Shown in pieces: positions 1,150-63,739 of a stretch of 64,000 nucleotides of DNA. A model generated the notes under the pieces. The model did no database searches and had not been told where the DNA came from. It saw nothing but the letters and a program-made list of their open reading frames with translations. Source of the stretch: Candidatus Omnitrophota bacterium (GTDB lineage: Bacteria > Omnitrophota > Gorgyraeia > DTHP01); the NCBI GenBank assembly GCA_023819145.1, contig JAMWCW010000003.1:78887-142886 (forward strand), in the 5' to 3' direction. The position numbers and the translations under genes were made by a program. Each line of letters opens with the position of its first letter. The stretch's first letter is position 1.

Positions 1150-3600
1150 ATGTTTAATCGATTTACCGAGAGAGCGAGGAAGGTAGTATTGTTGGCAAAG
1201 GAAGAAGCGCGGCGTTTTAACCACGATTATATTGGTACCGAGCACATCCTTTTGGGGCTAATTCGTGAAGGAGAGGGCGTGGCGGCAGCAGTATTGCAAA
1301 ATTTGGGTTTGAATTTGGAAGGTATTCGGTTAGAGGTGGAGAAGATTGTTCAACCTGGCCCCAGCACCGTGGTTTCTGGAGACATTCCGTTTACACCGAA
1401 GGCAAAAAAGGTTATTGAGTTGGCCATGGAAGAGGCGCGTTCCTTGGGTCATAACTATATCGGAACAGAGCATCTACTTTTAGGTTTGATTCGTGAAGGA
1501 GAAGGGGTGGCAGCCCAGGTATTAGTTAATTTAGGATTAGACCTTACTAAGGTAAGAAGAGCGGTGATGGAACTTTTGGGAGCGGGTAGTTCTGGAAGTT
1601 CAATGTATGGGACTCCCGCTGGGCAGAAGACAAAAACCCCTGCCCTTGATGCTTTTGGCAGAGACCTTACTCAGTTGGCACGGGAGAATAAACTTGATCC
1701 GGTAATTGGAAGGAAAGAAGAGATTGAACGCGTAATGCAGATTTTGAGCCGAAGGACCAAAAATAATCCTGTTCTCTTAGGCGAAGCAGGCGTGGGTAAA
1801 ACTGCAATTGTGGAAGGAGTGGCGCAGAAAATTGTACGGGGAGATTTACCGGAAGTAGTACGCGATAAACGTGTAATTACCTTAGACTTAGCCCTTATGG
1901 TAGCAGGGACAAAATACCGTGGACAATTTGAAGAGCGGATTAAAGCGGTGATGGATGAAATAAAACGCTCCGAAAATGTTATTCTTTTTATAGATGAATT
2001 GCACACCTTGGTAGGGGCGGGCGGTGCGGAGGGAGCAATTGATGCTTCCAATATTTTAAAACCTGCTTTAGCAAGGGGAGAATTACAGTGTATTGGTGCT
2101 ACGACCTTAGATGAATATCGTAAATACATCGAGAAAGATGCAGCCTTAGAACGTCGGTTTCAAACAATTATGGTAGACCCGCCTACGGTTGAAGAGACTA
2201 TAGAAATCCTCAAAGGATTGCGTGACAAATATGAGGCTCACCATCGGGTAAAGATTACTGATGAAGCAATTGTTGCCTCGTCCCGTCTATCCGACCGCTA
2301 TATCTCAGGAAGATTTCTTCCCGATAAGGCAATTGACTTAATTGACGAGGCTGGTTCGCGTGCAAGACTTTCGGTACTTACCCCCCCGTCTGAAATGAAA
2401 GAGTTAGAACAAAGGATAGAACAGCTTACTAAGGAAAAGGAGGCGGCAATAAAAGGGCAAGATTTTGAAAAGGCAGCCCATGTACGGGACCAAGAGAGGC
2501 TTGCGCGTCAAGAACTTGAACAACTCAAACGGGAATGGGAAAAAAAGAAAAACGAAATTCAACCTCAGGTTACAGAAGAAGATATTGCTCAGATTGTTTC
2601 CAAATGGACAGGGATTCCTTTGATTAGATTAGAGCAGAAAGAATCAGAGAAACTTCTCCATGTAGAAGAGGAGATTCATCGGCGAGTAATTGGACAGGAA
2701 GAAGCAATTTCTGCCATTGCTCGCGCAGTCCGTCGTTCTCGCGCAGGGCTTAAAGACCTGCGTCGACCCATTGGTTCCTTCATCTTTCTTGGCCCTACAG
2801 GCGTGGGAAAGACTCTTTTGGGTAAGGCTTTGGCAGAGTTTATGTTTGGTGATGAAGATGCTTTGGTTCAATTGGATATGTCGGAATATATGGAAAAATT
2901 TAATGTTTCACGTCTCGTAGGTGCTCCTCCGGGCTATGTGGGATATGAGGAGGGAGGTCAGCTTACCGAGAAAATAAGGAGAAGACCATATTCAGTTATA
3001 CTTCTTGATGAGATAGAAAAGGCGCATCCTGATGTTTTTAATATTCTCCTTCAGGTATTAGATGAAGGGCGTCTTACAGACAGTTTTGGTAGAAGAGTTG
3101 ATTTCAGAAATACTATCCTTATTATGACTTCGAATATTGGTGCTGAATTTTGGAAGAAGCAGGCTAATCTGGGATTCCGCAGTGAAAAAGAGGAAATAAA
3201 TTACGATACGATAAAGATGAGGCTTTTGGATGAAGTTAAAAGAACATTTAAGCCCGAGTTTATCAATCGTATAGACGATATTATTGTTTTTCGTCCCCTT
3301 ACGCGAGAAGATTTACAGAAGATTGTGGAATTGGAGATTAGTGAGGTTCGCAGAAGGCTGGGAGAACAAGGTTATTTTATAGAATTGACTCCAGAGGCAA
3401 AAGAATTTCTGATTGATAAAGGTTTCGACCCGGTTTTAGGTGCTCGCCCCTTAAGGAGGACAATTCAGCGGTATGTTGAAGACCCTCTTGCTGAAGAAAT
3501 AATTGCCGGTAAATTTAAAGTAGGAGATACGATAAGAATTGTATCCCATGAGCAGAGACTTGAATTTGAGACTGCGAAAGAAAAACAAGTTTTGAGTTAG
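1150..3600 (+). CDS. clpC: ATP-dependent Clp protease ATP-binding subunit ClpC
   Basis: Tandem Clp-N repeats (GTEHILLGL twice), two AAA+ Walker A motifs ([16 protein letters not shown]) and a UVR-like middle domain; 816 aa. Confidence 0.9.
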
Positions 3601-3633
3601 TTTTTACATTGAAGGGCTAGATTATTTATTATA

Positions 3634-5250
3634 ATGCGCAGTCGCATACAGAGAAAAAAGAATATTTTTTTAATATTTTTTTTACTAATCATTGGATTAT
3701 CTTTGTTTATTTATGCAGAGCGTGGGCAATTATTGAACGAAATTAAAGCCTCGATCGAGAAAGAACTCAGTAGACAATTATCCGTTTCTTTAAAAATAGG
3801 AGATTTCAAACATTGGTGGGCGAGGAATTTAAATTTCGGTGACGTTCAGATAACAGATAGCAAAGACTCGTTTTTTATATCCGCCAAAGATGTTTATTTC
3901 AATTTTTCTCTGTGGGATATTTTTTTAAGAAGGAAAAGTGAATCAAAAGATATAGGTTTTTTTGTTAAAGATGCAGCTTTTTTTGTAAAAGGAATAAAGA
4001 TACCTCTCCGCATTATTTCACTAAGCGCAGTTTTGAGTAGTGGGTATTTAGAGATTAAGGAATCGAAAGGAATTCTGGCAGAATTTTTCCCTTTTGAATT
4101 GAAGGCAATTCTGGGTAGCTTTGCCCAAAGAAATCCCAAGATAGACTTAAAGTGCCATTTTGAAAGGGATCCTTCCAGTAGATTTCTTTCTTCTTTTATC
4201 CCAACGTTTATTTATATGAGTGGAGATAGTGAAAAGATTCTTATAGAAGGGTTTAATGACTTAGAAAAACCGGTCTTTCATCTTAGCGGAGAATTTCTTC
4301 CCTTGGTCGGCAGATTTAGTTTGATATTTGAAAAATATCAAGACAATAAAAATTTTCCTCTGCGGATTGAGGGCGATTTTAAAGAAAAAAAGAAATCCAT
4401 AAAAATAATTTTTAATCACTTTCCCTTAATGGATAATAATGAATTGATTTCCAATATTTTTATTGAGGGTGAATATGATTCTCAAGAGAAAATCTTGGAA
4501 GGAAAAGTTTATAGTTCAGGGACACTTTTCAATTTTTTGCCTTTACCCGAATTTGAAGGAAGTTACAGATTAAAGGATGGCATGTTAAATATAGATAGTT
4601 TTAAATGGGCAGATTCTTTATGGCTTGAGGGGGATATAAGATTTTTGGATTTTGTTTCGGGAAACCTCCGCGTTTTGCTCAGGAATCTTAACCTTCTTTA
4701 TTTTGCTTATTTCTATTATCCTAACTGGAATGCCTGGGGAGGAATTTCTGGGGGGATTGATTTGCAAATAAGGGAAGGCAATGTATTTACTAAAGGAAGT
4801 TTTGATTTTACAGAAGGGGAATTTGGGCCATTTAAATTTAAAGGAGGGAAAATTAAATTTGAGGGTGAGAATAGCGTTTTCAGATTAACCGATACGCGGA
4901 TTTATCAAGAAAAAGGATATTTTGACCTTGGTGGCGAGATAGATTTGAAGAAATTAGGGAAATACGATTTTGTAAGAAATATTGTACTCATACCCTATCA
5001 GGAAGGGATGGAATGGCAAGGTTGGCGTGTTTCACAAAAGGACTATACTGATTCCATTATTGCAGACAAAGGTATAGATGAAAAATTTAGCATCCAGTTT
5101 CGTTCTTATATGAAAGATAATCAGGGGATAACAAAGGAAAAAAGCGATGAATTTGGTTTAGAATATAAACTTAAGGAAGATAGAAGTTTGAAACTGCGGT
5201 TAAAAGAAAATGAGGAGATTTTTGGCTTTGAGCGAAAAGTTAGATTCTAA
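3634..5250 (+). CDS. Hypothetical membrane-anchored protein (possibly AsmA/TamB-like envelope protein)
   Basis: Single N-terminal TM helix and a long beta-rich soluble region; adjacent to mlaEFD. Family assignment is tentative. Confidence 0.35.
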   Translation: MRSRIQRKKNIFLIFFLLIIGLSLFIYAERGQLLNEIKASIEKELSRQLSVSLKIGDFKHWWARNLNFGDVQITDSKDSFFISAKDVYFNFSLWDIFLRRKSESKDIGFFVKDAAFFVKGIKIPLRIISLSAVLSSGYLEIKESKGILAEFFPFELKAILGSFAQRNPKIDLKCHFERDPSSRFLSSFIPTFIYMSGDSEKILIEGFNDLEKPVFHLSGEFLPLVGRFSLIFEKYQDNKNFPLRIEGDFKEKKKSIKIIFNHFPLMDNNELISNIFIEGEYDSQEKILEGKVYSSGTLFNFLPLPEFEGSYRLKDGMLNIDSFKWADSLWLEGDIRFLDFVSGNLRVLLRNLNLLYFAYFYYPNWNAWGGISGGIDLQIREGNVFTKGSFDFTEGEFGPFKFKGGKIKFEGENSVFRLTDTRIYQEKGYFDLGGEIDLKKLGKYDFVRNIVLIPYQEGMEWQGWRVSQKDYTDSIIADKGIDEKFSIQFRSYMKDNQGITKEKSDEFGLEYKLKEDRSLKLRLKENEEIFGFERKVRF

Positions 5251-18352: not shown

Positions 18353-19873
18353 ATGGATAAGTTATATATCACTACACCGCTTTACTATGTTAACGCTACT
18401 CCCCATATTGGTCATTCTTATACCAATATTGCTGCCGATTGTTTAGCAAGGTTTATGCGTCTTAAAGGTAAAGAGGTATATTTTTTAACCGGAACCGATG
18501 AACATGGTCAGAAAATTTTTCGTTCTGCGCAAAATTCCGGTAAGAGTCCTCAGGAATTTGTAAACAGCATTGTTCCTCATTTTATTGATTTATGGAAAAC
18601 CCTTTCCATTTCTTATAATGACTTTATTCGCACTACTGAAGAAAGACACAAAAAGACAGTAAGTTTTGCTTTATCAAATCTTTATGATAAAAAAGATATT
18701 TACCTTACAGAATATAGTGGTTGGTATTGTACTCCCTGTGAAACATTCTGGACAGAGACCCAACTTGATTCTCCCCTTTGTCCTGATTGCCTGCGACCTT
18801 TAGAGGAACTAAAAGAAAAAAATTATTTTTTTCGTTTAGAAAAATACCGCAATTGGTTAATTAAACATATTGAGGAACACGCTTCTTTCATAAAACCCAT
18901 AAGCCGTAGAAACGAAATTCTTAAATTTTTAGAAAAACCCCTCAATGACTTATGCATTTCTCGTCCAAGAACACGTTTAGAATGGGGAATTCCTATCCCT
19001 TTTGATTCCGGATATGTTACCTATGTTTGGTTTGATGCTTTAATTAACTACATTTCCGCAATTGGTTTTGGTCAAGATGAGGGAAAATTTAGGAAATATT
19101 GGCCTTGTGATATTCATTTAGTAGGGAAAGATATTTTACGCCAGCATACAATTTACTGGCCAATAATGCTTCATGCTTTAGGAATTGAACTTCCAAAAAC
19201 TGTTTTTGCTCATGGTTGGTGGATGGTAGGAGAAGGGAAGATGTCTAAATCTAAAGGAAATATTGTTGACCCATTGGAGATGGTTAAAAAGCATGGTGAA
19301 GATGCCTATCGTTATTTTCTTTTAAGAGAAATTCCTTTTGGTCAAGATGGAAATTTTAGCGAGTCTGCTTTAATTTCACGCATAAATTCCGATTTAGCCA
19401 ATGATTTGGGGAATTTATATTTTAGGACCTTTGGAATGCTTGAAAAGTATTTTTCAGGAAAAATTCCTGAAGTTTCTCCTTTAGATAAAGTTTTTAAAGA
19501 AAAATTGGGAAAATTACCTCAAGAGTTAGAAGAAGCAATAGAAGATTTAAACTTTCAAGAAATGCTTATTTCTATTTGGGAGTTAGTTAATCTTGCCAAT
19601 AAATTTATTGAAGATTCTCGCCCTTGGGAACTTTCCAAAGAAAAAAAGATAGATGAACTTTCCTCCTTTCTGTATAACCTTATAGAAATTCTGCGTATTG
19701 TAACCATCTGTGTTTATCCCTTTATGCCTAAGTTTGCAGAAAAAGTCTGGAGACAATTAGGACAAAGAAAAGAACTTCAAGAAGTAAGTTTCTCAGAAAT
19801 TTATCAATGGGGTTTATCTATTCCAGGTACAGAAATAGAAAAAGGAACCCCTCTATTCCCAAGAATTATTTAA
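18353..19873 (+). CDS. metG: Methionyl-tRNA synthetase (short form)
   Basis: HIGH (PHIGHSYT) and KMSKS motifs, Cys4 knuckle; 506 aa. Confidence 0.9.
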   Translation: MDKLYITTPLYYVNATPHIGHSYTNIAADCLARFMRLKGKEVYFLTGTDEHGQKIFRSAQNSGKSPQEFVNSIVPHFIDLWKTLSISYNDFIRTTEERHKKTVSFALSNLYDKKDIYLTEYSGWYCTPCETFWTETQLDSPLCPDCLRPLEELKEKNYFFRLEKYRNWLIKHIEEHASFIKPISRRNEILKFLEKPLNDLCISRPRTRLEWGIPIPFDSGYVTYVWFDALINYISAIGFGQDEGKFRKYWPCDIHLVGKDILRQHTIYWPIMLHALGIELPKTVFAHGWWMVGEGKMSKSKGNIVDPLEMVKKHGEDAYRYFLLREIPFGQDGNFSESALISRINSDLANDLGNLYFRTFGMLEKYFSGKIPEVSPLDKVFKEKLGKLPQELEEAIEDLNFQEMLISIWELVNLANKFIEDSRPWELSKEKKIDELSSFLYNLIEILRIVTICVYPFMPKFAEKVWRQLGQRKELQEVSFSEIYQWGLSIPGTEIEKGTPLFPRII

Positions 19874-20516
19874 GGGATAACCGAAATCGGTAAGATAAAA
19901 ATTAAATGGGATATAAAAGATAAATATATTATAGAGAGGGTTTTAGGACATTACCAAAAATTTCTCTCTAAAAGTAAGAAAAAGGATATTGAGCTTAAGG
20001 TCTATAACCGAAATTTTTCCTTCCTAAAAAATTCCCTCTGATCACTACGCAAAGCTGGGATTATTTAAGAACAAAAGATAAATTATATTTTTGTTTTTCT
20101 CGTGGAGAAAATAGTTCGGTTGCTTGCGTATCTTGTGATTTTAAAAAGATAGATTTTTATACCCCTAACAAACATGGCCAATTACTTCTTTATCTTTTCC
20201 CTGAACTTCTTTATAGTCTAATTCTTCCTGAATTCAATGGCCTTCTAATTCATGCCGGTGGGGTAAAATTAAATAAAAAAATATTTGTTTTTTAGCCCCT
20301 ACAGAAGGAGGAAAATCAACTTTAGCAAAGCTTGCTTTAAAGAAAGGTTTTCCTGTTTTAAATAACGACCGCATAATTTTAAGAAAAATTAGAAATAAAT
20401 TTATTGCCTTTGGTAATCCTTGGCATGGTGAAGTAAGAAAGACTTCCTCGGATTATGGTAAGATAAAAGAATTATTCTTCTTAGAAAAGGCAGAGAAAAT
20501 TATATTAAGGAAATAA
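19874..20516 (+). pseudogene. HprK-related kinase (RiPP-cluster-associated HPr kinase-like P-loop protein), disrupted by at least two frameshifts
   Basis: Three frame segments translate to ...KWDIKDKYIIERVLGHYQKF..., ...LLIHAGGVKLNKKIFVF* and ...TEGGKSTLAKLALKKGFPVLNNDRIIL.... This matches the HPr kinase C-terminal fold (LxHASxV ... GxSGxGKSTLA). The frame switches fall in A6/A7 homopolymers at about 20026-20031 and 20275-20281. Confidence 0.45.
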
Positions 20517-20677
20517 ATAAACAAGAAATGTTTCTTTACCTTTTAGGAAATACTTTCTGTTTTAGGGGAGATAAAGACCATTACAAAAAGTTGTAGATAT
20601 TATTTTAGAATTGATAGATAATATAAAAGGATATACTTTAGGTTTTGACCCCACTGTAAGTATCTGGAGGTATTTAG

Positions 20678-20977
20678 ATGAAAGATTTAGATAAAGTTTT
20701 CAAGAAAAATACTGAGCTTGCCTGGAGAATAATTGATAATGAGACAATGATCATCCCCCTTGATGAGCAAACTGTAGATACCGAAAAAATTGAAGTTTTA
20801 AATCCTACTGCAACGTGTATCTGGGAATTAATTAATGGGGAAAATACATTAAAGGAGATAATTGAAAAAATATGTGAAGAATATGAAATTGAATATGAAG
20901 AGGCGGAAAAAGAGGTGCTCGGATTTATAAGAGATCTAAGGAATAAGAATTTGATTACCTTAGGAGGTGAGCGATGA
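20678..20977 (+). CDS. PqqD-family peptide chaperone (RiPP recognition element)
   Basis: 99-aa acidic protein with PqqD-like core (ETMIIPLD...VLNPTATCIWELINGENTLKEII...GFIRDLRNKNLI); stop overlaps the next ATG (ATGA). Confidence 0.65.
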   Translation: MKDLDKVFKKNTELAWRIIDNETMIIPLDEQTVDTEKIEVLNPTATCIWELINGENTLKEIIEKICEEYEIEYEEAEKEVLGFIRDLRNKNLITLGGER

Positions 20978-21111
20978 AGAAAAATAAGAAGAAATGGGAG
21001 AAGCCCAAGGTGAAAGAGATGAAGCTAAGGAGGGGAATAAGTCTTTACCTTTGCGACAAGTTTCCCCAGACGGCGCCCTACCATGATATTTGTGCTTCAG
21101 ACTTCTCATGA
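20974..21111 (+). CDS. Candidate RiPP precursor peptide, 45 aa (MKKNKKKWEKPKVKEMKLRRGISLYLCDKFPQTAPYHDICASDFS)
   Basis: Not in the six-frame track (<60 aa). AGGAGGTG RBS at 20962-20969 is 4 nt upstream; ATG is coupled to the PqqD stop; 22 nt before the radical-SAM gene. Lys-rich leader-like N-terminus, two Cys in the C-terminal half. Confidence 0.4.
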   Translation: MKKNKKKWEKPKVKEMKLRRGISLYLCDKFPQTAPYHDICASDFS

Positions 21112-21133: not shown

Positions 21134-22173
21134 ATGGTCTCAATTTGGTACAGAGGTGTTTTAAATAGAGTTACTGAAAATCTTATTCCTTTTCACTGCC
21201 TCTTAGAGCTTACCTACAGATGCAATCTCAAATGCCTGCACTGTTATGTGGTAAGGGATACTCAAAAAGAACTTACCACTCAGCAATTCTTAAGTATCTT
21301 AGATCAACTTAAGGAATTAGGAACTTTGTATCTCATCATTTCTGGAGGAGAACCGTTAGTAAGAACTTATTTTTTTGAAATTTGCAAACACGCTAAGAAG
21401 AATAATTTTGCATTACGAATATTTACGAATGCTTCCCTAATTAATACAAATATTGCGGAGAGGATTAGAGAACTTAAACCTTTAGTAGTAGAGGTGGGTT
21501 TATACGGGTTTGAAAAGACGCACGATGAAATAACCTAGGTTAGAGGTTCGTTCAAAAAGACTGTAGAAGGAATAAAGCTATTTAAGAAAAGAAATATCCC
21601 AGTTCTGGCAAAATGCGCTCTTTTAAATAAAAATATTTATGAAATTTGGAAATTGAAAGATTTTGTAGAAAAGGAGTTAAAAATAAAAATGCGGGGTATA
21701 GGAGGAGGTTTAGCTTTATCACCTTGTGATAATGGAGACTTAAGACCTTTAAATTATCTACCTACAGATGAGCAATTGAAATGGTATATGAAAGAAGAAA
21801 AAATATCTGAGGAGGAATCAAAACAGCCACCGGATTTTAGAAAACGCCGACTTAATTTTAACCTTTGTGGTTCAGGGATAAGCACTGTTAATATTACTCC
21901 CCATGGAGAAATCAATCCCTGTGTGCAAATAAGAACAAAAAATAAAATAAAATAAATCACAGAAGTATCAAAGATATCTGGCAAAATGCAGAGGAGTTTA
22001 AGTTACTTAGGCAAACGAAGATTAGAGATTTAGAAGAATGTCAAGATTGTGAATATGAAAAATATTGTTTCCGCTGTGCCGGGATTTCCTATCTACTTAC
22101 CGCTTCCTTCATCAAATCCTATCCTGATGCCTGCAGGCAAGCACGTATAAGAAAAGAAATTTACGAGGGCTAA
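21134..22173 (+). pseudogene. Radical SAM/SPASM-domain peptide-modifying enzyme, interrupted by an in-frame TAG (21536-21538) and a frameshift in an A-rich run (~21940-21956)
   Basis: CNLKCLHC (CxxxCxxC), GGEPL, HDEIT*VRGSFKKTVEGIKLF, and SPASM motifs (CGSGISTVNITPHGEINPC; CQDCEYEKYCFRCAG) in a shifted frame. Confidence 0.6.
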
Positions 22174-22246: not shown

Positions 22247-23614
22247 ATGTTAATTGATACCCATTGTCATTTGGATTTTTCAGAATTTGATAAGGATAGA
22301 GACGAGGTAATAAACCGTGCAAAGGATAGAGGAGTAAAATATTTTATTAATGTTTCCTCCGATTATTCTTCTAATTTAAAAAGTTTAGAGTTAGCTAACA
22401 AATACCCTGAAATTTATGTCTCTTTAGGAATCCATCCCCATTATGCTAAAGATGTGGATGAGAGTATTTTTGAAAGAATTAGAGAATTAGCTAAGGAAAA
22501 TAAGAAAGTAATAGCCATTGGAGAAGTTGGGCTTGATTTTTATAAAAATATCTCTCCAAAAGAAATTCAATTAGAAATTTTCAAGCGATTTTTAGAATTG
22601 GCAGAGGAATTAAATTTGCCCGTAATTGTCCATAATCGGAATGCCCCTAAAGAAATTTTAGAAGTAATTAAAAAATTTTCTTTGAAGGGAGTTTTTCATT
22701 GTTTTTCTGGAGACAACGATTTTCTAAAAGAGGTTCTTAATTTAGGTTTTTATATTTCTTTTACTGCTAATATAACTTATCCCAACGCAGAAAATCTCTG
22801 TGAGATAGTAAAAGAAACTCCCATTGAAAAAATACTTCTTGAGACCGACTCTCCCTTTTTATCCCCTCAAGAAAAGAGAGGTTTGCGTAATGAACCAGCA
22901 AATTTGGTCTATTTAGTTGAGAAATTAGCAGAATTAAAAGGTTTAAGCAAAGAAGACATTATACGCATTAGCGGTTTGAATGCAGTTCAATTATTTAGAC
23001 TTCCGTTTGAAGATAAACCAAAAATTGTTTATCCCATAAGAGATTCTCTATATGTAAATATCACCAATCGCTGTACAAACAATTGCTCTTTTTGTGTAAG
23101 GTTTTATACTGACTATGTTAAAGGGCACAACTTAAAATTAAGAAATGAGCCATCTTTTGAGGAAATTATAAAAGAATTAGAAAAAGAAGATTTCAGAAAA
23201 TATAAAGAAGGGGTTTTTTGCGGTTATGGAGAACCTTTTCTAAGACTTGAGATAGTTAAAAAAGTAGCAAAATATCTAAAAGATAAAGGGATTCGGGTAA
23301 GAGTTAATACCAATGGGCAAGGAAACTTAATTCATAAAAGAAACACTGTTCCTGAATTAAAAGATTTAATTGATGAGGTTTTTGTAAGTTTAAATGTGGA
23401 TAATGAGGAAAGTTATGCTAAAATATGTAAGCCTGATTTTAAGGAGGGTGTTTTTAATAAAATAAAAGAATTTATCTTAGAGTGCAAAAAATACATCCCT
23501 TATGTTACAATTACTTTTATAGATTTACCAGAGGTAGATTTAGAAAGATGTGAGAAGATTGCTAAAGAATTGGGAGTTAATCTTAGAATTAGAAGATTAC
23601 ATCAGGTGGGATAG
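22247..23614 (+). CDS. tatD: TatD-family hydrolase fused to a C-terminal radical-SAM domain
   Basis: N-terminal TatD motifs (IDTHCHLDF...GEVGLD...HCFSG...ETDSPF). C-terminal ~200 aa carries NRCTNNCSFC (CxxxCxxC), GYGEPF and NTNG motifs, as in the TatD-associated radical-SAM protein family. Confidence 0.75.
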   Translation: MLIDTHCHLDFSEFDKDRDEVINRAKDRGVKYFINVSSDYSSNLKSLELANKYPEIYVSLGIHPHYAKDVDESIFERIRELAKENKKVIAIGEVGLDFYKNISPKEIQLEIFKRFLELAEELNLPVIVHNRNAPKEILEVIKKFSLKGVFHCFSGDNDFLKEVLNLGFYISFTANITYPNAENLCEIVKETPIEKILLETDSPFLSPQEKRGLRNEPANLVYLVEKLAELKGLSKEDIIRISGLNAVQLFRLPFEDKPKIVYPIRDSLYVNITNRCTNNCSFCVRFYTDYVKGHNLKLRNEPSFEEIIKELEKEDFRKYKEGVFCGYGEPFLRLEIVKKVAKYLKDKGIRVRVNTNGQGNLIHKRNTVPELKDLIDEVFVSLNVDNEESYAKICKPDFKEGVFNKIKEFILECKKYIPYVTITFIDLPEVDLERCEKIAKELGVNLRIRRLHQVG

Positions 23615-60221: not shown

Positions 60222-60635
60222 CTAGTGAAGCACCTGTCTATTTTTTGCTCCTTGACGTAATTGCAAGGCTCGAGGAGGTCCGATAATCGCAGAGTAAATT
60301 ATGGCAGTTTCTAATTCATGGGGAGAGATTGTTTCTCCCTTTTCTGTTTTAGATAGTTTTATTTCTTCAACCTTTTCTTTTTTTTCTAAGTTTATCTCTT
60401 GAATTTTTTCAACTTCTAATTCTTGCGCTTTTTCTTTTTCTTCAAACACTACCTCTGCAGGAAGATTTTCTTCCCCGTAGGGTATTTCCAGAGTTTCCAA
60501 AAGGTCTTCTAAGGGGTTTTTGGGGGAAGTTTTTTCTTCAACAGGTGTATGTCTTTTCTTGCGTTCTAAAATTTGTCCCACCGATTGTAAGACAAAGAGG
60601 ATAACGATAAAAAATAGAAAAAATAAATTCTCCAT
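60222..60635 (-). CDS. Hypothetical N-terminally anchored Glu/Lys-rich protein
   Basis: One TM helix followed by a charged low-complexity region; downstream of floA on the - strand. Confidence 0.3.
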   Translation of the reverse strand: MENLFFLFFIVILFVLQSVGQILERKKRHTPVEEKTSPKNPLEDLLETLEIPYGEENLPAEVVFEEKEKAQELEVEKIQEINLEKKEKVEEIKLSKTEKGETISPHELETAIIYSAIIGPPRALQLRQGAKNRQVLH

Positions 60636-60683
60636 TACCTAAATTACCTCTTTACAAACGGATTGTTATAGATAAATTTATAT

Positions 60684-61667
60684 TTAATCTTTTTCTTTCT
60701 TTTTCTCCTCAGTCGGTTTACCAATTCGCTCCCGCATCTCCGTATCTGCTTGGATGTTTCGTAGCGAATAATAATCCATTACTCCCAGTTTTCCCTCTTT
60801 AAAGGCATAAGCAATTGCTTTAGGAATTTCTGCCTCTGCTTCTACCACCTTTGCTCGCATCTCTTGGACGCGTGCTTTCATTTCCTGCTCTTGGGCTACG
60901 GCAAGAGCCCTTCTTGTCTCCGCTTTTGCCTGGGCAACTTTTAAATCTGCTTCTGCCTGGTCTGCCTGAAGCTGAGCGCCGATATTTTTCCCTACATCAA
61001 CATCCGCAATATCAATGGAAAGAATCTCAAAAGCAGTGCCCGAATCCAACCCTTTTGCCAAAACAGTTTTAGAAATTAAATCAGGGTTCTCTAAAACATT
61101 TTTATAACTCTCGGCAGAACCGATGGTAGTAACAATTCCTTCCCCAACACGGGCGATAATCGTTTCCTCAGTTGCTCCTCCTACCAGCCGTTCGATATTG
61201 GCACGCACCGTTACGCGTGCTTTTGCCTTTAATTCTATGCCATCTTTGGCGACTGCTGCCAGAACTCCTTCTTTAGGGGCATCAATTACTTTGGGATTTA
61301 CTGAAGTTTTCACTGCATCCAAAACATCCCGTCCCGCAAGGTCGATAGCACAGGCCCGTTCAAATTTTAAGTCGAGATTTGCTTTATCTGCAGAGATTAA
61401 TGCTTTAACGACACGAATTACGTCTCCGCCTGCAAGATAATGCGCTTCTAATCCATCCAATTTTATAGAAAGCCCAGCTTTATGGAGCATAATTAGACCG
61501 GGAACAATAATCCGCGGGTCAACATTGCGTAGGCGCATGCCGATTAGACTGAAGATAGAAATTCTTACTCCTGCGGCAATAGCCGCAATCCAGAGTCGCA
61601 CGGGAATGAAATAGCCAAAGAGAAAAAGCGTTGCTACAATAACTATAGCGATGACAAATACAGGCAT
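60684..61667 (-). CDS. floA: Flotillin-like protein FloA (SPFH/band-7, YqfA family)
   Basis: Near-colinear match by eye to the FloA family pattern (GVRISIF..GMRLR...AHYLAGG...[10 protein letters not shown]...[11 protein letters not shown]...[19 protein letters not shown]...QADQAEAD). Confidence 0.85.
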
Positions 61668-61707
61668 TTTGCACCTCCATTCTTGGTTAAATGTTAACTG
61701 GTTTTAA

Positions 61708-62187
61708 CTAAATTTGTTTGACGATGACACGATTGCCTTCTGTTTTTATGACTAAAACTTGTTTATTCTGTTCAATGAATACCCCTCCTTCAGAGAGTGC
61801 ATCGATTCTTTTCCCTTCAATTAAGCATATTCCAACAGGGCGAAGAGGTGAGATGGTTTTCCCTATTTTGTTGACTAAACTACTTAAATCGCCTTTAAAG
61901 GGTTTAAAACCTGCTTCTTTCGTTTCCTGATGTTCCAAACGGAGTTTTTTCCAGATTTTGGTTTTGGGAAAGAGCCTCCATGATAAAATAATAAGCATCA
62001 AACTGCCTAAAGAAACAATCAATCCTAATCCAAGGTTTAATTTTGTCCAAGCGAAATAGGAAGCAAGGATTAAAGAGGCAATTCCACTCATTCCCAGTAT
62101 GCCAAAACCGGGAATAATTAAAATCTCAATGGCTAAAAGCACATAGCCTAATAAAATAAGCGTTAAAACCAATAACCAATTAGGCAT
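61708..62187 (-). CDS. NfeD-family membrane protein (short form, OB-fold C-terminus)
   Basis: Three TM helices plus a C-terminal beta-barrel (GKTISPLRPVGICLIEGKRIDALSEG); paired with floA. Confidence 0.7.
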   Translation of the reverse strand: MPNWLLVLTLILLGYVLLAIEILIIPGFGILGMSGIASLILASYFAWTKLNLGLGLIVSLGSLMLIILSWRLFPKTKIWKKLRLEHQETKEAGFKPFKGDLSSLVNKIGKTISPLRPVGICLIEGKRIDALSEGGVFIEQNKQVLVIKTEGNRVIVKQI

Positions 62188-62221
62188 TATCTTATTCCTT
62201 GATTTATTTGTAAATCAGGAA

Positions 62222-63739
62222 TTAAATCGATTTAACTACTACTTTTGCTCCTTCGATACTTATGACTTTTACCTCTTTATCCTTTTCAATAAATTCACCT
62301 TCGCTGATTACATCCAGGACTTTTCCCGAGAATTCTGCCTTACCCGATGGTCTAAGATAGGTAATAGTTTTACCTATTTTACCGATTAAATTTTCTTTAG
62401 TCAAATCAATAGTACTGTAACCTTCTTCTTTAGATTCTTTCTCTTGTAAAATTATTCTTTTCCAGAGTCCGGTGCGAGGAAGAAAATTTATGGACAACAG
62501 TAACACTACCAAAGTAGCAAAGAAAGAGTAAACAACAACCTGAAATGCTTGAAGTAGTTCTCTGTGCGGGGTATGCAAGGGGTGTTTAATTAAAGCTAAG
62601 AAAATGCTAACCAAAAGCAGTATTCCTCCTGAGATTCCTGCGAAGCCAAATCCGGGAAAGACAAAAATTTCTAAAAAGATTAGAATCAGTGCAAGGATGA
62701 AAAATATTATCTCCGTCCAGTTTGCTAGACCTACAAGATAATGTCCCCAGAAAAATAGTGCTAAAGAAATTACCCCCAAGGTTCCTGCTATCCCCCAGCC
62801 AGGGATTTTTATCTCAAAGATAATTCCCAAGAAACCCAACGTTAAAAGTAAGGAACTCACAATTGGATGGGTCAAGAAGCGCACCAGATTTTCCGACCAG
62901 CTGGGTTTAGGTTCAAACATTTCTTTTTCTTTTAGATTTAAAAACGCAAGGAGTTCTTCGCGCTGAGAAATAATTTTTTTTACCATCCCCAATTCTTTTG
63001 CCTCTTCGGCAGTGAGATTGAGAAGTTTACCTTTTTCTGTCACGGTTTTTATTATTTTTATTTTTTCTTCTCCCAGTTCACTTTTTTTCTCTGCAACTTC
63101 CTCAGGGTAAAGGATAAAATTTTCTTCACCGATTCTTACCAATTTTAATTCTAAATCTTTATCCACAAAAGCCTCTGCCAATTTAGGACTGTGTTTATTT
63201 GCTTCTGCGGTAGCTTTAAATTTCGCTCTTAAAGCGGAAATGGTTTTTTCGTCTTTTACTTCTTCTTCATTACCCATGCCTATGGCACGGGGTTCTGCGG
63301 AGCCAATACTTGAACCAGGAGTCATGTAAATTTCTTCACAGGCAAGAGAAATCAATGCCCCTGCAGACCAGGCTTCACCTAACACAAATGCCTTTACGGG
63401 AATGGGCTTTAGCTCTTCCAAGGATTTAACAATTTCCCCAGCAGCATCCACTCTTCCCCCAAAAGTATCAATCTCTACTATTACTGCAGAGGCGTGTTCT
63501 TCCTTTGCTTCTCTGGTTACGCGTTTAACAAATGCCGAAAGCCCCAAGTCAATTACCCCTTTTATGGGGACGACATAAACCGCACTTTTTTCCTGACTAT
63601 ATCCGGAATTTAATAACCCCCCTAACCCGTAACCAAGAACCAGTAACCAAAGAAATAATTTGGGAAATCTCTTAAAAATCTGTGCAATCATAGTTATTAA
63701 TATACCATTCAAATCTGGATGTGTCAATTGTATTGACAT
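62222..63739 (-). CDS. NfeD-family membrane-bound ClpP-class serine protease (YqeZ-like long form)
   Basis: ClpP-like domain (VVPIKGVID...EIDTFGGRVDAA...GEAWSAGALISLAC), multi-TM region, C-terminal OB domain. The true start is probably the internal M (MIAQIF...) at 63691. Confidence 0.8.
   Translation of the reverse strand: MSIQLTHPDLNGILITMIAQIFKRFPKLFLWLLVLGYGLGGLLNSGYSQEKSAVYVVPIKGVIDLGLSAFVKRVTREAKEEHASAVIVEIDTFGGRVDAAGEIVKSLEELKPIPVKAFVLGEAWSAGALISLACEEIYMTPGSSIGSAEPRAIGMGNEEEVKDEKTISALRAKFKATAEANKHSPKLAEAFVDKDLELKLVRIGEENFILYPEEVAEKKSELGEEKIKIIKTVTEKGKLLNLTAEEAKELGMVKKIISQREELLAFLNLKEKEMFEPKPSWSENLVRFLTHPIVSSLLLTLGFLGIIFEIKIPGWGIAGTLGVISLALFFWGHYLVGLANWTEIIFFILALILIFLEIFVFPGFGFAGISGGILLLVSIFLALIKHPLHTPHRELLQAFQVVVYSFFATLVVLLLSINFLPRTGLWKRIILQEKESKEEGYSTIDLTKENLIGKIGKTITYLRPSGKAEFSGKVLDVISEGEFIEKDKEVKVISIEGAKVVVKSI

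Follow-up and report, generated by a model that had tools for sequence, protein, structure and literature searches.

Does the 45-codon open reading frame (ORF) at 20974..21111 encode the precursor of a modified peptide, and is the pathway around it still complete? We addressed this question in a stretch of 64,000 nucleotides of Candidatus Omnitrophota DNA (the window), in which the ORF lies between the intact gene of a PqqD-family protein and the broken gene of a radical S-adenosylmethionine (rSAM) enzyme of the SPASM type. The original prediction, made from the sequence of the window, had proposed that the ORF is the precursor gene of an rSAM/SPASM operon for a ribosomally synthesised and post-translationally modified peptide (RiPP). 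On sequence grounds, the ORF does belong to a family of small precursor peptides that is conserved and so far uncharacterised. We consider it probable that the ORF is the true precursor (A) gene in a RiPP cassette whose other members are an HPr-kinase-like gene, a discrete PqqD-type RiPP recognition element (RRE) and an rSAM/SPASM enzyme, and that the copy in the window is a recently decayed remnant of this cassette.

The 45-codon ORF and its peptide family

The ORF and the elements in and around it are the following.

20974..21111 (+): probable precursor peptide gene, 45 aa, MKKNKKKWEKPKVKEMKLRRGISLYLCDKFPQTAPYHDICASDFS; E=2e-9 with the leave-one-out family hidden Markov model (HMM)
20962..20969 (+): Shine-Dalgarno sequence AGGAGGTG, lying inside the final codons of PqqD (L-G-G-E-R)
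20995..21012 (+): leader motif W-E-K-P-K-V, residues 8-13, predicted RRE-binding element
21052..21060 (+): C27-D28-K29, first conserved Cys with Lys at +2, as seen in the 15-peptide alignment and the wider set
21091..21108 (+): C-terminal C40-A-S-D-F-S45, comprising the last Cys, four residues and the terminal Ser

The frame opens with the ATG at 20974 and closes with the TGA at 21109-21111, and its translation is exactly the one given before. The Shine-Dalgarno octamer is separated from the ATG by a spacer of 4 nt (agcg), and the PqqD stop codon (TGA, 20975-20977) shares bases with the peptide start in an ATGA overlap at 20974-20977. Downstream, a gap of 22 nt separates the peptide stop from the first rSAM ORF, which starts at 21134. 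In all these points the original prediction was correct. Its description of the ORF as unannotated holds for its own ORF track but not for the public record, where the ORF is listed as MCM8783655.1 ('hypothetical protein NC818_02600') of a Candidatus Omnitrophica metagenome-assembled genome (MAG), directly after the PqqD protein MCM8783654.1. The octamer occurs three times in the 64 kb and two of these occurrences, including that of the peptide, are located just 5′ of an ORF start. The length of the ORF alone is not significant, because the ORF listing of the window holds dozens of spurious ORFs of 30-70 aa; its significance comes from homology. An Rfam scan and a scan for promoters and terminators between 19.7 and 22.4 kb revealed nothing relevant.

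When the 45-aa peptide was used as a query, a word-indexed search of 5.8 billion clusters and a phmmer search against 1.84 billion representatives both returned only the peptide itself. The cores are too variable for single-sequence searches, and homologues were therefore reached via the neighbouring PqqD and rSAM proteins. In total, 97 loci were fetched. A scan of GTDB representatives with the rSAM alignment contributed 80 more distant loci (27-46% rSAM identity) and no close relative, the best match having 46% identity. These loci belong to Omnitrophota, Acidobacteriota, Nitrospirota, Desulfobacterota, Chloroflexota, Planctomycetota, Verrucomicrobiota, Bacillota and others. A metagenome scan with the PqqD alignment gave four loci only. 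All four components were present within the flanks in 38 of the 97 loci and the three proteins in another 22, in several of which further peptides were spotted by eye.

We then built an HMM from 11 related close-clade peptides, leaving out the window peptide, and searched the 1,759 six-frame segments of the window with it. The ORF was found with E=2e-9 (34 bits), whereas the next-best segment reached only 0.28. A broad iterated leader HMM, likewise built without the window, also ranked the ORF first, with an E-value of only 0.018 because of the Lys-rich bias. The conservation of the small ORF in homologous loci supports the earlier reading of a precursor peptide coupled to PqqD. Each close Omnitrophota locus contains one to four small ORFs adjoining the PqqD or the rSAM gene, and in those loci with intact enzymes all the peptides carry the leader KKKWxKPx[IVLM]. 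The '...LGGER*' end of PqqD with the embedded Shine-Dalgarno sequence and the overlapping peptide start was found again in L005, L087 and L092-L095. The nearest relative of the window peptide is encoded at 5511-5669 of L091 (MKKNARKKWERPRVEEVKVGKQSAVHTACDKTSQRRPESGGWIIDCDSNFSS), where it is linked to MetRS as in the window.

In an alignment of 15 close-clade peptides from related Omnitrophota loci, K6, W8, P11 and C27 are invariant. Lys is found at +2 of this first Cys in 14 peptides, the exception reading C-N-I, and all 15 contain a further Cys and end with Ser or Thr. Conservation of the C..C core had been proposed as a check; every one of these peptides has at least two Cys. Moreover, the codons of the KKKWxKPx[IV] motif show saturated synonymous change and little non-synonymous change (pS 0.83 versus pN 0.16), and the invariant Pro is encoded by all four Pro codons. 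This pattern points to selection on the protein and not on the DNA, and the refutation set out in the original prediction thus fails.

The same features were found in a wider set of 61 distinct peptides from more than 10 phyla, collected with the iterated leader HMM and by inspection by eye. Their leader reads [W/Y]x[K/R]Px[LIVM], 31 of them having W and 29 having Y at the aromatic position. Among the 60 peptides with the aromatic motif, 59 have their first Cys 18-22 residues past W/Y. A Lys comes directly after this Cys (+1) in 31 peptides and one position further on (+2) in 20, and every peptide has two to seven Cys past the motif. In 42 of the 61, the last Cys stands 4-5 residues ahead of the terminal residue. 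This terminal residue is Ser in 52 and Thr in seven peptides, against a background of 14% at the ends of six-frame segments. The window peptide carries every family feature: W8, C27 (+19), K29, C40, four residues and S45. For comparison, the peptides of L007 and L091 end with ...NCASNMS and ...DCDSNFSS, respectively. The core sequences are hypervariable, and there are loci with two to four different precursors.

When the window peptide and ten relatives were scanned with Pfam and NCBIfam, all matches were sub-threshold and no model in either collection covers the peptides. These weak matches were to PqqA, the paeninodin leader and an SSH motif; those of PqqA, the paeninodin leader and one RaS-RiPP leader fall on the WxKP stretch. 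Further small ORFs that the leader HMM missed are present in L010 (6152-6331), L012 (5987-6166), L015 (5923-6093), L018 (3087-3254) and L026 (2954-3226), from Acidobacteriota, Chloroflexota and Omnitrophota. They read KPYxKP..., have two or three Cys and a C-terminal Ser (e.g. ...SCTVAFS and ...NCTTGNLSAS), and form a sub-type with a longer, less basic N-terminus.

The PqqD, kinase-like and rSAM genes of the cassette

Three further genes or gene remnants accompany the ORF in the window.

19874..20691 (+): pseudogene for a P-loop protein of the HPr-kinase-like (ScmC-like) type, with which the cassette begins, delimited by tblastn
20678..20977 (+): intact discrete PqqD-family RRE, 99 aa, Pfam PF05402
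21134..22173 (+): rSAM/SPASM maturase pseudogene, 71% identity to the intact 344-aa protein P0002

The PqqD protein matches PF05402 with 61.3 bits (cut-off 23.4), and its best NCBIfam match is the lasso PqqD chaperone model. We found 24 homologues with 59-77% identity. The AlphaFold model (mean pLDDT 77) is most similar in the PDB to RREs of lasso peptides with bound leader, TbiB1 (5v1v) and B1 (6jx3), with TM-scores of 0.69-0.82, followed by PqqD. Discrete RREs of lasso and linear polyphosphorylated peptide (LPP) systems have been shown experimentally to bind the motif [Y/W]xxPx[L/V/I/F/A] (PMC13381572). The leader of the window peptide, W8-E-K-P11-K-V13, fits this motif, and the cognate discrete RRE is encoded alongside, overlapping by the ATGA. 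With good support, the RRE is predicted to bind the WxKPx[IV] leader and to present the peptide to the enzymes.

The maturase gene is interrupted twice: at 21536-21538 by an in-frame TAG (CAG>TAG), in place of the Gln found in the homologues (ITQV), and near 21940-21960, where the frame shifts within a run rich in A. The remnant still encodes CxxxCxxC and all seven SPASM cysteines, i.e. ten cluster Cys. Only two of 31 invariant positions are changed (D>Y and L>F), compared to zero to three in intact members; the D>Y change lies in the invariant R-x-D-F-F, which reads RTYFF near 21355-21369. The decay of the rSAM gene thus appears recent, because all cluster Cys are kept and the changes at invariant positions are within the range of intact members. 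Recoding of TAG was considered as the cause of the in-frame stop and rejected; the rSAM gene is also frameshifted, as is the neighbouring kinase-like gene.

With the reconstructed rSAM protein we found 848 homologues at E<=1e-10; Omnitrophota MAGs and metagenomes supplied the closest of these, which are intact and have 65-73% identity. Intact homologues match PF04055 and PF13186 and have 3+7 invariant Cys, i.e. a full SPASM domain. Compared to solved structures, the family profile matched SkfB best (4.6e-29), followed by PqqE, SuiB and CteB. An intact enzyme reached no cut-off in NCBIfam, the best model being ScmE (126 bits versus 400), and ten more distant enzymes likewise reached no NCBIfam cut-off and had no ScmE or ScmF match at E<=1e-30.

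That the enzymes are broken had been stated in the original prediction and is true of the rSAM gene, but the second broken gene, encoding the HPr-kinase-like protein, had not been named. Using intact homologues of 275-289 aa in tblastn, we recovered this gene in five pieces (19877-20023, 20035-20292, 20265-20498, 20465-20593 and 20581-20691) in frames 2/1/3/2/1, which corresponds to four frameshifts. In addition, its start codon is GGG, whereas the homologues have GTG or ATG, and in the 20266-20270 region the remnant reads LNNDR in place of the near-invariant LNDDR, a D>N change in the catalytic DD pair.

An alignment of 19 kinase-like members showed that H128 and K149 (in GKST) are invariant and D166-D167 near-invariant. 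These residues correspond to the His-Lys-Asp-Asp motif of lasso-tailoring kinases, which is essential in PadeK and ThcoK, enzymes by which the precursor's conserved C-terminal Ser is phosphorylated on its hydroxyl (PMC9266682). Among the 19 members, 16 matched HprK_rel_B, 14 ScmC, 13 HprK_rel_A, eight HPr(Ser) kinase and six Pfam Hpr_kinase_C, although the best E-values with NCBIfam were only 1e-6 to 1e-11. When the family profile was searched against PDB sequences, generic P-loop matches dominated and HPr kinase reached only E=0.2. Because this PDB profile search was uninformative, the HPr-kinase-like assignment rests on the NCBIfam and Pfam scans of the members and on motif conservation. The kinase-like gene is co-located with the rSAM gene in most of the fetched loci.

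The gene order of the window is found again in L001 and L088 (MetRS, kinase-like gene, PqqD, peptide, ..., rSAM, TatD, CPBP protease, DUF362, MtnA, ThiL), and the window, L001 and L091 share the housekeeping order tmk, holB, PSP1, metG, [cassette], tatD. Intact cassettes are found, for example, in L001/L088 (Ga0078972_1000445), L007 (SAG AM-311-A19, JBHPDM010000014.1) and L038 (CP070807.1). Nearly all genes of the window are on the + strand up to about 60.1 kb and on the − strand thereafter (60222..63739). Following the cassette, one 455-aa ORF (22247..23614, +) encodes a fusion of a TatD nuclease (TIGR00010, 279 bits) with a domain of the 'TatD-associated radical SAM' type (TIGR04038, 256 bits); the TatD gene of L001, which is syntenic, is unfused (258 aa). 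This fusion is unrelated to the RiPP cassette, even though it places a second rSAM domain next to it.

Outside the window, the cassettes often contain further genes. A signal-peptidase-like protein of the S24/S26 type is encoded in 41 loci and an NTP_transf_5 protein in 21, while the close Omnitrophota loci have an S8 protease in place of S24/S26. The window cassette has neither the signal-peptidase-like protease nor the NTP transferase. In L038 (7078-8688), L016 (3889-5970) and L030 (3821-6067), Peptidase_S24 and NTP_transf_5 are fused directly 3′ of the kinase-like gene. Some loci of the wider family sit among polysaccharide-export genes, and L038 is flanked by such genes (Poly_export, Wzz/GNVR). 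Several Omnitrophota cassettes are split between PqqD/peptide and rSAM by genes of the toxin-antitoxin or abortive-infection type (among them MNT/HepT, HicA, Phd/ParE, AbiEii and DUF6036), which are located in L001 (3568-4744), L004 (923-1374 and 2063-2670), L005 (492-1077), L006 (335-913 and 1458-2043) and L091 (6150-6587). The cassette looks like an insertion hot spot.

Decay of the window copy and alternative readings

Long intact genes are missing from one stretch of the window only, the 2.4 kb between MetRS (18353..19873) and the TatD-rSAM fusion; the other ~60 kb consist of densely packed uninterrupted ORFs. Within the cassette we counted seven lesions in ~1.86 kb, five in the kinase-like gene and two in the rSAM gene. 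The original prediction had also stressed that the PqqD gene and the peptide remain intact. Both frames are indeed open, but this is not evidence of kept function, because at the flanking lesion density only ~1.6 lesions are expected in the 434 bp of the two genes and the probability of none is P~0.2. The cassette is most likely a recently inactivated minimal copy in which the small genes have not yet been hit. Maturation of the peptide in cis is probably no longer possible, and its gene is most likely a remnant that is as yet intact and not a maintained gene.

Partial decay was also observed in other loci. In L092, L093 and L095 the rSAM gene is reduced to a C-terminal remnant of 75 aa (6553-6780 in L092), whereas the kinase-like gene is intact, as are PqqD and a 44-aa peptide, a pattern shared by L092-L095. 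In L005 a kinase-like gene is split into two ORFs (3077-3905), and the second peptide copy of L096 (3889-3996) has ACG where its sister copy has ATG.

There is some, though small, probability that the peptide and its RRE are still functional, either being matured by an intact rSAM/kinase paralogue elsewhere or having a reduced RRE-plus-peptide role. Both ORFs are intact and carry every family hallmark, Omnitrophota contigs can hold two cassettes and several precursors (L005), and the independent lineage L092-L095, with everything but its rSAM gene intact, shows that partial cassettes recur. An intact paralogue in another part of the MAG might act in trans. However, chance accounts for the 434 intact base pairs in about one of five cases (P~0.2, given the seven lesions), and the decay looks recent, with the rSAM remnant still 71% identical to intact homologues, so that there was maybe too little time for lesions to arise. 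Furthermore, no second copy of any cassette component was found within the 64-kb window. The sole rSAM homologue from the same batch of submissions, MCM8791874.1, lies ~8,200 accession numbers away in GCA_023819665.1, apparently a different MAG.

A further alternative is that the lesions are errors of sequencing or assembly and that the whole cassette is intact and functional. Several frameshifts are indeed located in A or T homopolymer runs, for instance at ~20270-20290 and 21940-21960. We nevertheless regard an error as unlikely, because two of the lesions, namely CAG>TAG in the rSAM gene and GTG/ATG>GGG at the start of the kinase-like gene, are substitutions and not indels, and because the window is otherwise unbroken: seven lesions fall in 1.9 kb, compared to uninterrupted genes in the other ~60 kb, which are equally AT-rich. 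In addition, an Asp of a catalytic motif is replaced (LNNDR), and both broken genes lack a protein entry, whereas those of PqqD and the peptide have consecutive accession numbers.

A different question is whether the family provides precursors of a peptide-derived redox cofactor like PQQ or mycofactocin, and not of a secreted or bioactive RiPP. We think this very unlikely. PqqA HMMs weakly match the leader (12-13 bits), the rSAM enzyme reaches ~110-122 bits with the mycofactocin maturase and PqqE models, and many loci are compact cassettes. MftC acts on a fixed C-terminus, and the fixed Cys-x4-5-Ser end of the family is reminiscent of this. Yet the cores are hypervariable and two to four different precursors may occur in one locus, as is typical of diversifying natural products. 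The PqqA signature E-x3-Y is missing, and the PqqA and PqqE scores are below the cut-offs. Moreover, the leader peptidases and the polysaccharide-export neighbourhoods resemble the context of LPP and paeninodin clusters (PMC13381572).

Finally, the reading of the ORF as a frame left open by chance between PqqD and the rSAM gene has virtually no weight left: ORFs of such length are common in this AT-rich window and single-sequence searches found no homologue, but it is refuted by the significant profile match (E=2e-9), the codon comparison with its conserved leader and synonymous turnover, the 15-peptide alignment and the features of the 61 peptides with their conserved Cys spacing and terminal Ser, and by the position, Shine-Dalgarno sequence and ATGA coupling kept in relatives.

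Proposed maturation and comparison with known systems

For the intact relatives we propose the following order of events. Translation of the peptide is coupled to that of PqqD, as the sequence itself shows: the start and stop overlap as ATGA, and the Shine-Dalgarno sequence lies within PqqD codons. The PqqD RRE would then bind the leader through KKW-x-K-P-x-[IVLM], a step suggested by the identity of this motif with defined RRE ligands and by the fold match to leader-bound lasso RREs. Subsequently, the RRE would hand the Cys-containing core to the rSAM/SPASM enzyme. The likeliest product would be Cys-derived thioether crosslinks, given that at least two Cys are universal and that the closest solved relative is the thioether synthase SkfB. 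The HPr-kinase-like protein may phosphorylate the hydroxyl of the conserved C-terminal Ser/Thr, which is the reaction of PadeK and ThcoK with precursors of the paeninodin type; such a role is in line with the His-Lys-Asp-Asp motif and with the terminal Ser/Thr of 59 of the 61 peptides. In many relatives, co-location suggests that the S24/S26 signal-peptidase-like or the S8 protease cuts the leader and that NTP_transf_5 may decorate or extend the phosphate.

Several points weigh against this scheme. Thioether formation and C-terminal phosphorylation rest on analogy for every member of the family. The rSAM enzyme reaches no curated family cut-off, so its reaction could differ from thioether formation; the enzyme might also act on the fixed Cys-x4-5-Ser end. 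The original suggestion that the cysteines are crosslink sites is still speculation. Only one LPP system has been studied, and its kinase acts on Ser3 of the core and not on the C-terminus (PMC13381572). The scheme also does not account for the conserved Lys after the first Cys or for the fixed Cys-x4-5-Ser end.

For the window itself the result is modest, a small gene in a decaying operon, and the family is more useful. It provides a precursor signature, consisting of a [W/Y]xKPx[LIV] leader, a first Cys about 20 residues further on followed by Lys, at least two Cys and a terminal Ser. This signature covers widespread rSAM/SPASM + PqqD + HPr-kinase-like cassettes, mostly of uncultivated phyla, whose proteins score below all curated NCBIfam cut-offs.

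Among the known systems, we first compared the cassette to that of the LPP family. Its core consists of an RRE, a kinase of the HprK-like type, an SpI-like peptidase, an NTP transferase and a [Y/W]xxP leader, a set that is likewise central to the accessory genes of paeninodin; the kinase polyphosphorylates a Ser and the [Y/W]xxP motif is the RRE ligand (Popov et al. 2026, PMC13381572). In the same study both the LPP and the paeninodin families are reported as confined to Bacillota, with no mention of radical SAM enzymes. Our family shares with LPP clusters the RRE and the kinase-like gene and, in its wider circle, the S24/S26 protease, NTP_transf_5 and some polysaccharide-export settings. In contrast to LPP clusters, which have no rSAM/SPASM enzyme, every locus of the family contains one (by construction of the locus set). 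The LPP leader consensus is YxxPxVLxHQxIxFETxxS, of which the family shares only the [W/Y]xxPx[LIV] part. LPP cores are not Cys-rich, and their kinase target is Ser3 of the core. Whereas LPPs are reported from Bacillota only, the family occurs in Omnitrophota, Acidobacteriota, Nitrospirota, Desulfobacterota, Chloroflexota, Planctomycetota and other phyla. The window copy differs further by the absence of the protease and the NTP transferase.

The paeninodin type of phosphorylated lasso peptide (PadeA/PadeK/PadeB1) resembles the cassette in its WxxP leader with a discrete PqqD-like RRE, in its HPr-kinase homologue with His-Lys-Asp-Asp and in the conserved C-terminal Ser (PMC9266682), and the peptide leaders match the PadeA leader model at sub-threshold scores. 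The kinase-like gene of the window is a pseudogene with N-D at the D-D position. Neither the lasso cyclase (the Asn-synthetase-like C protein) nor the B2 protease was found in the Pfam-annotated gene tables of L001-L006 and L091-L096 or in the MetRS-TatD interval of the window. Unlike paeninodin clusters, the family has an rSAM/SPASM enzyme in place of cyclase and B2, its cores contain two to seven Cys, and all HMM scores are below the cut-offs.

The thioether-forming radical SAM RiPPs (RaS-RiPPs), i.e. sactipeptides and ranthipeptides such as SkfA/SkfB, CteA/CteB and SCIFF, also combine a core that contains Cys with an rSAM enzyme that ends in an auxiliary-cluster domain, and their leader is recognised in an RRE-dependent manner. 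In our family, however, the RRE is a separate protein and not an N-terminal domain of the enzyme, and the kinase-like partner and the terminal Ser are absent from the SkfA, CteA and SCIFF-type classes. The peptides did not match SCIFF or the curated precursor models, and the maturase reached 78-94 bits with the SCIFF/ScfB, AlbA, SkfB, StsB and other models, compared to cut-offs of 300-850.

The SynChlorMet (SCM) cassette (ScmC/ScmD/ScmE/ScmF) likewise combines a PqqD homologue, a PqqE-like rSAM/SPASM enzyme and the HPr-kinase-like ScmC, and ScmE is the best NCBIfam match of our rSAM enzyme. All scores were below the SynChlorMet cut-offs (ScmE 126 versus 400, ScmF 71 versus 400, ScmD 30 versus 100, and ScmC with E-values of at least 2e-11), and the cassette is thus a relative of the SCM cassette and not a member. 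With PqqA/PqqD/PqqE the cassette shares the W-x-K-P leader start, the discrete PqqD and the SPASM rSAM enzyme. The E-x3-Y pair of PqqA is absent from the window peptide, which reads G-I-S-L-Y with G at the E position. The PqqA models matched only the leader stretch and below their cut-offs (12.0 versus 20 bits for TIGR02107, 12.8 versus 21.1 for PF08042), and PqqE reached 110 versus 381 bits.

Judged by these comparisons, the ORF would be the precursor of an RRE-dependent rSAM RiPP that falls outside the PqqA, SCIFF/sactipeptide, paeninodin lasso, LPP and SynChlorMet types. We searched the openly accessible literature and found neither HprK-like proteins linked with SPASM enzymes nor a description of the cassette. 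The chances seem to us evenly balanced that it represents an undescribed cross-phylum RiPP class, in which an RRE, an HprK-like kinase, a signal-peptidase-like protease and NTP_transf_5 are joined to an rSAM/SPASM enzyme. Its products would be Cys-crosslinked, (poly)phosphorylated at the C-terminal Ser and possibly further decorated, and its peptides would be the precursors once missing for ScmC-type (SynChlorMet-like) cassettes. The cassette is a paeninodin/LPP module joined to an rSAM enzyme, and the family ties radical SAM RiPP chemistry to a peptide-phosphorylation module that has so far been studied only in lasso peptides and LPPs of Bacillota.

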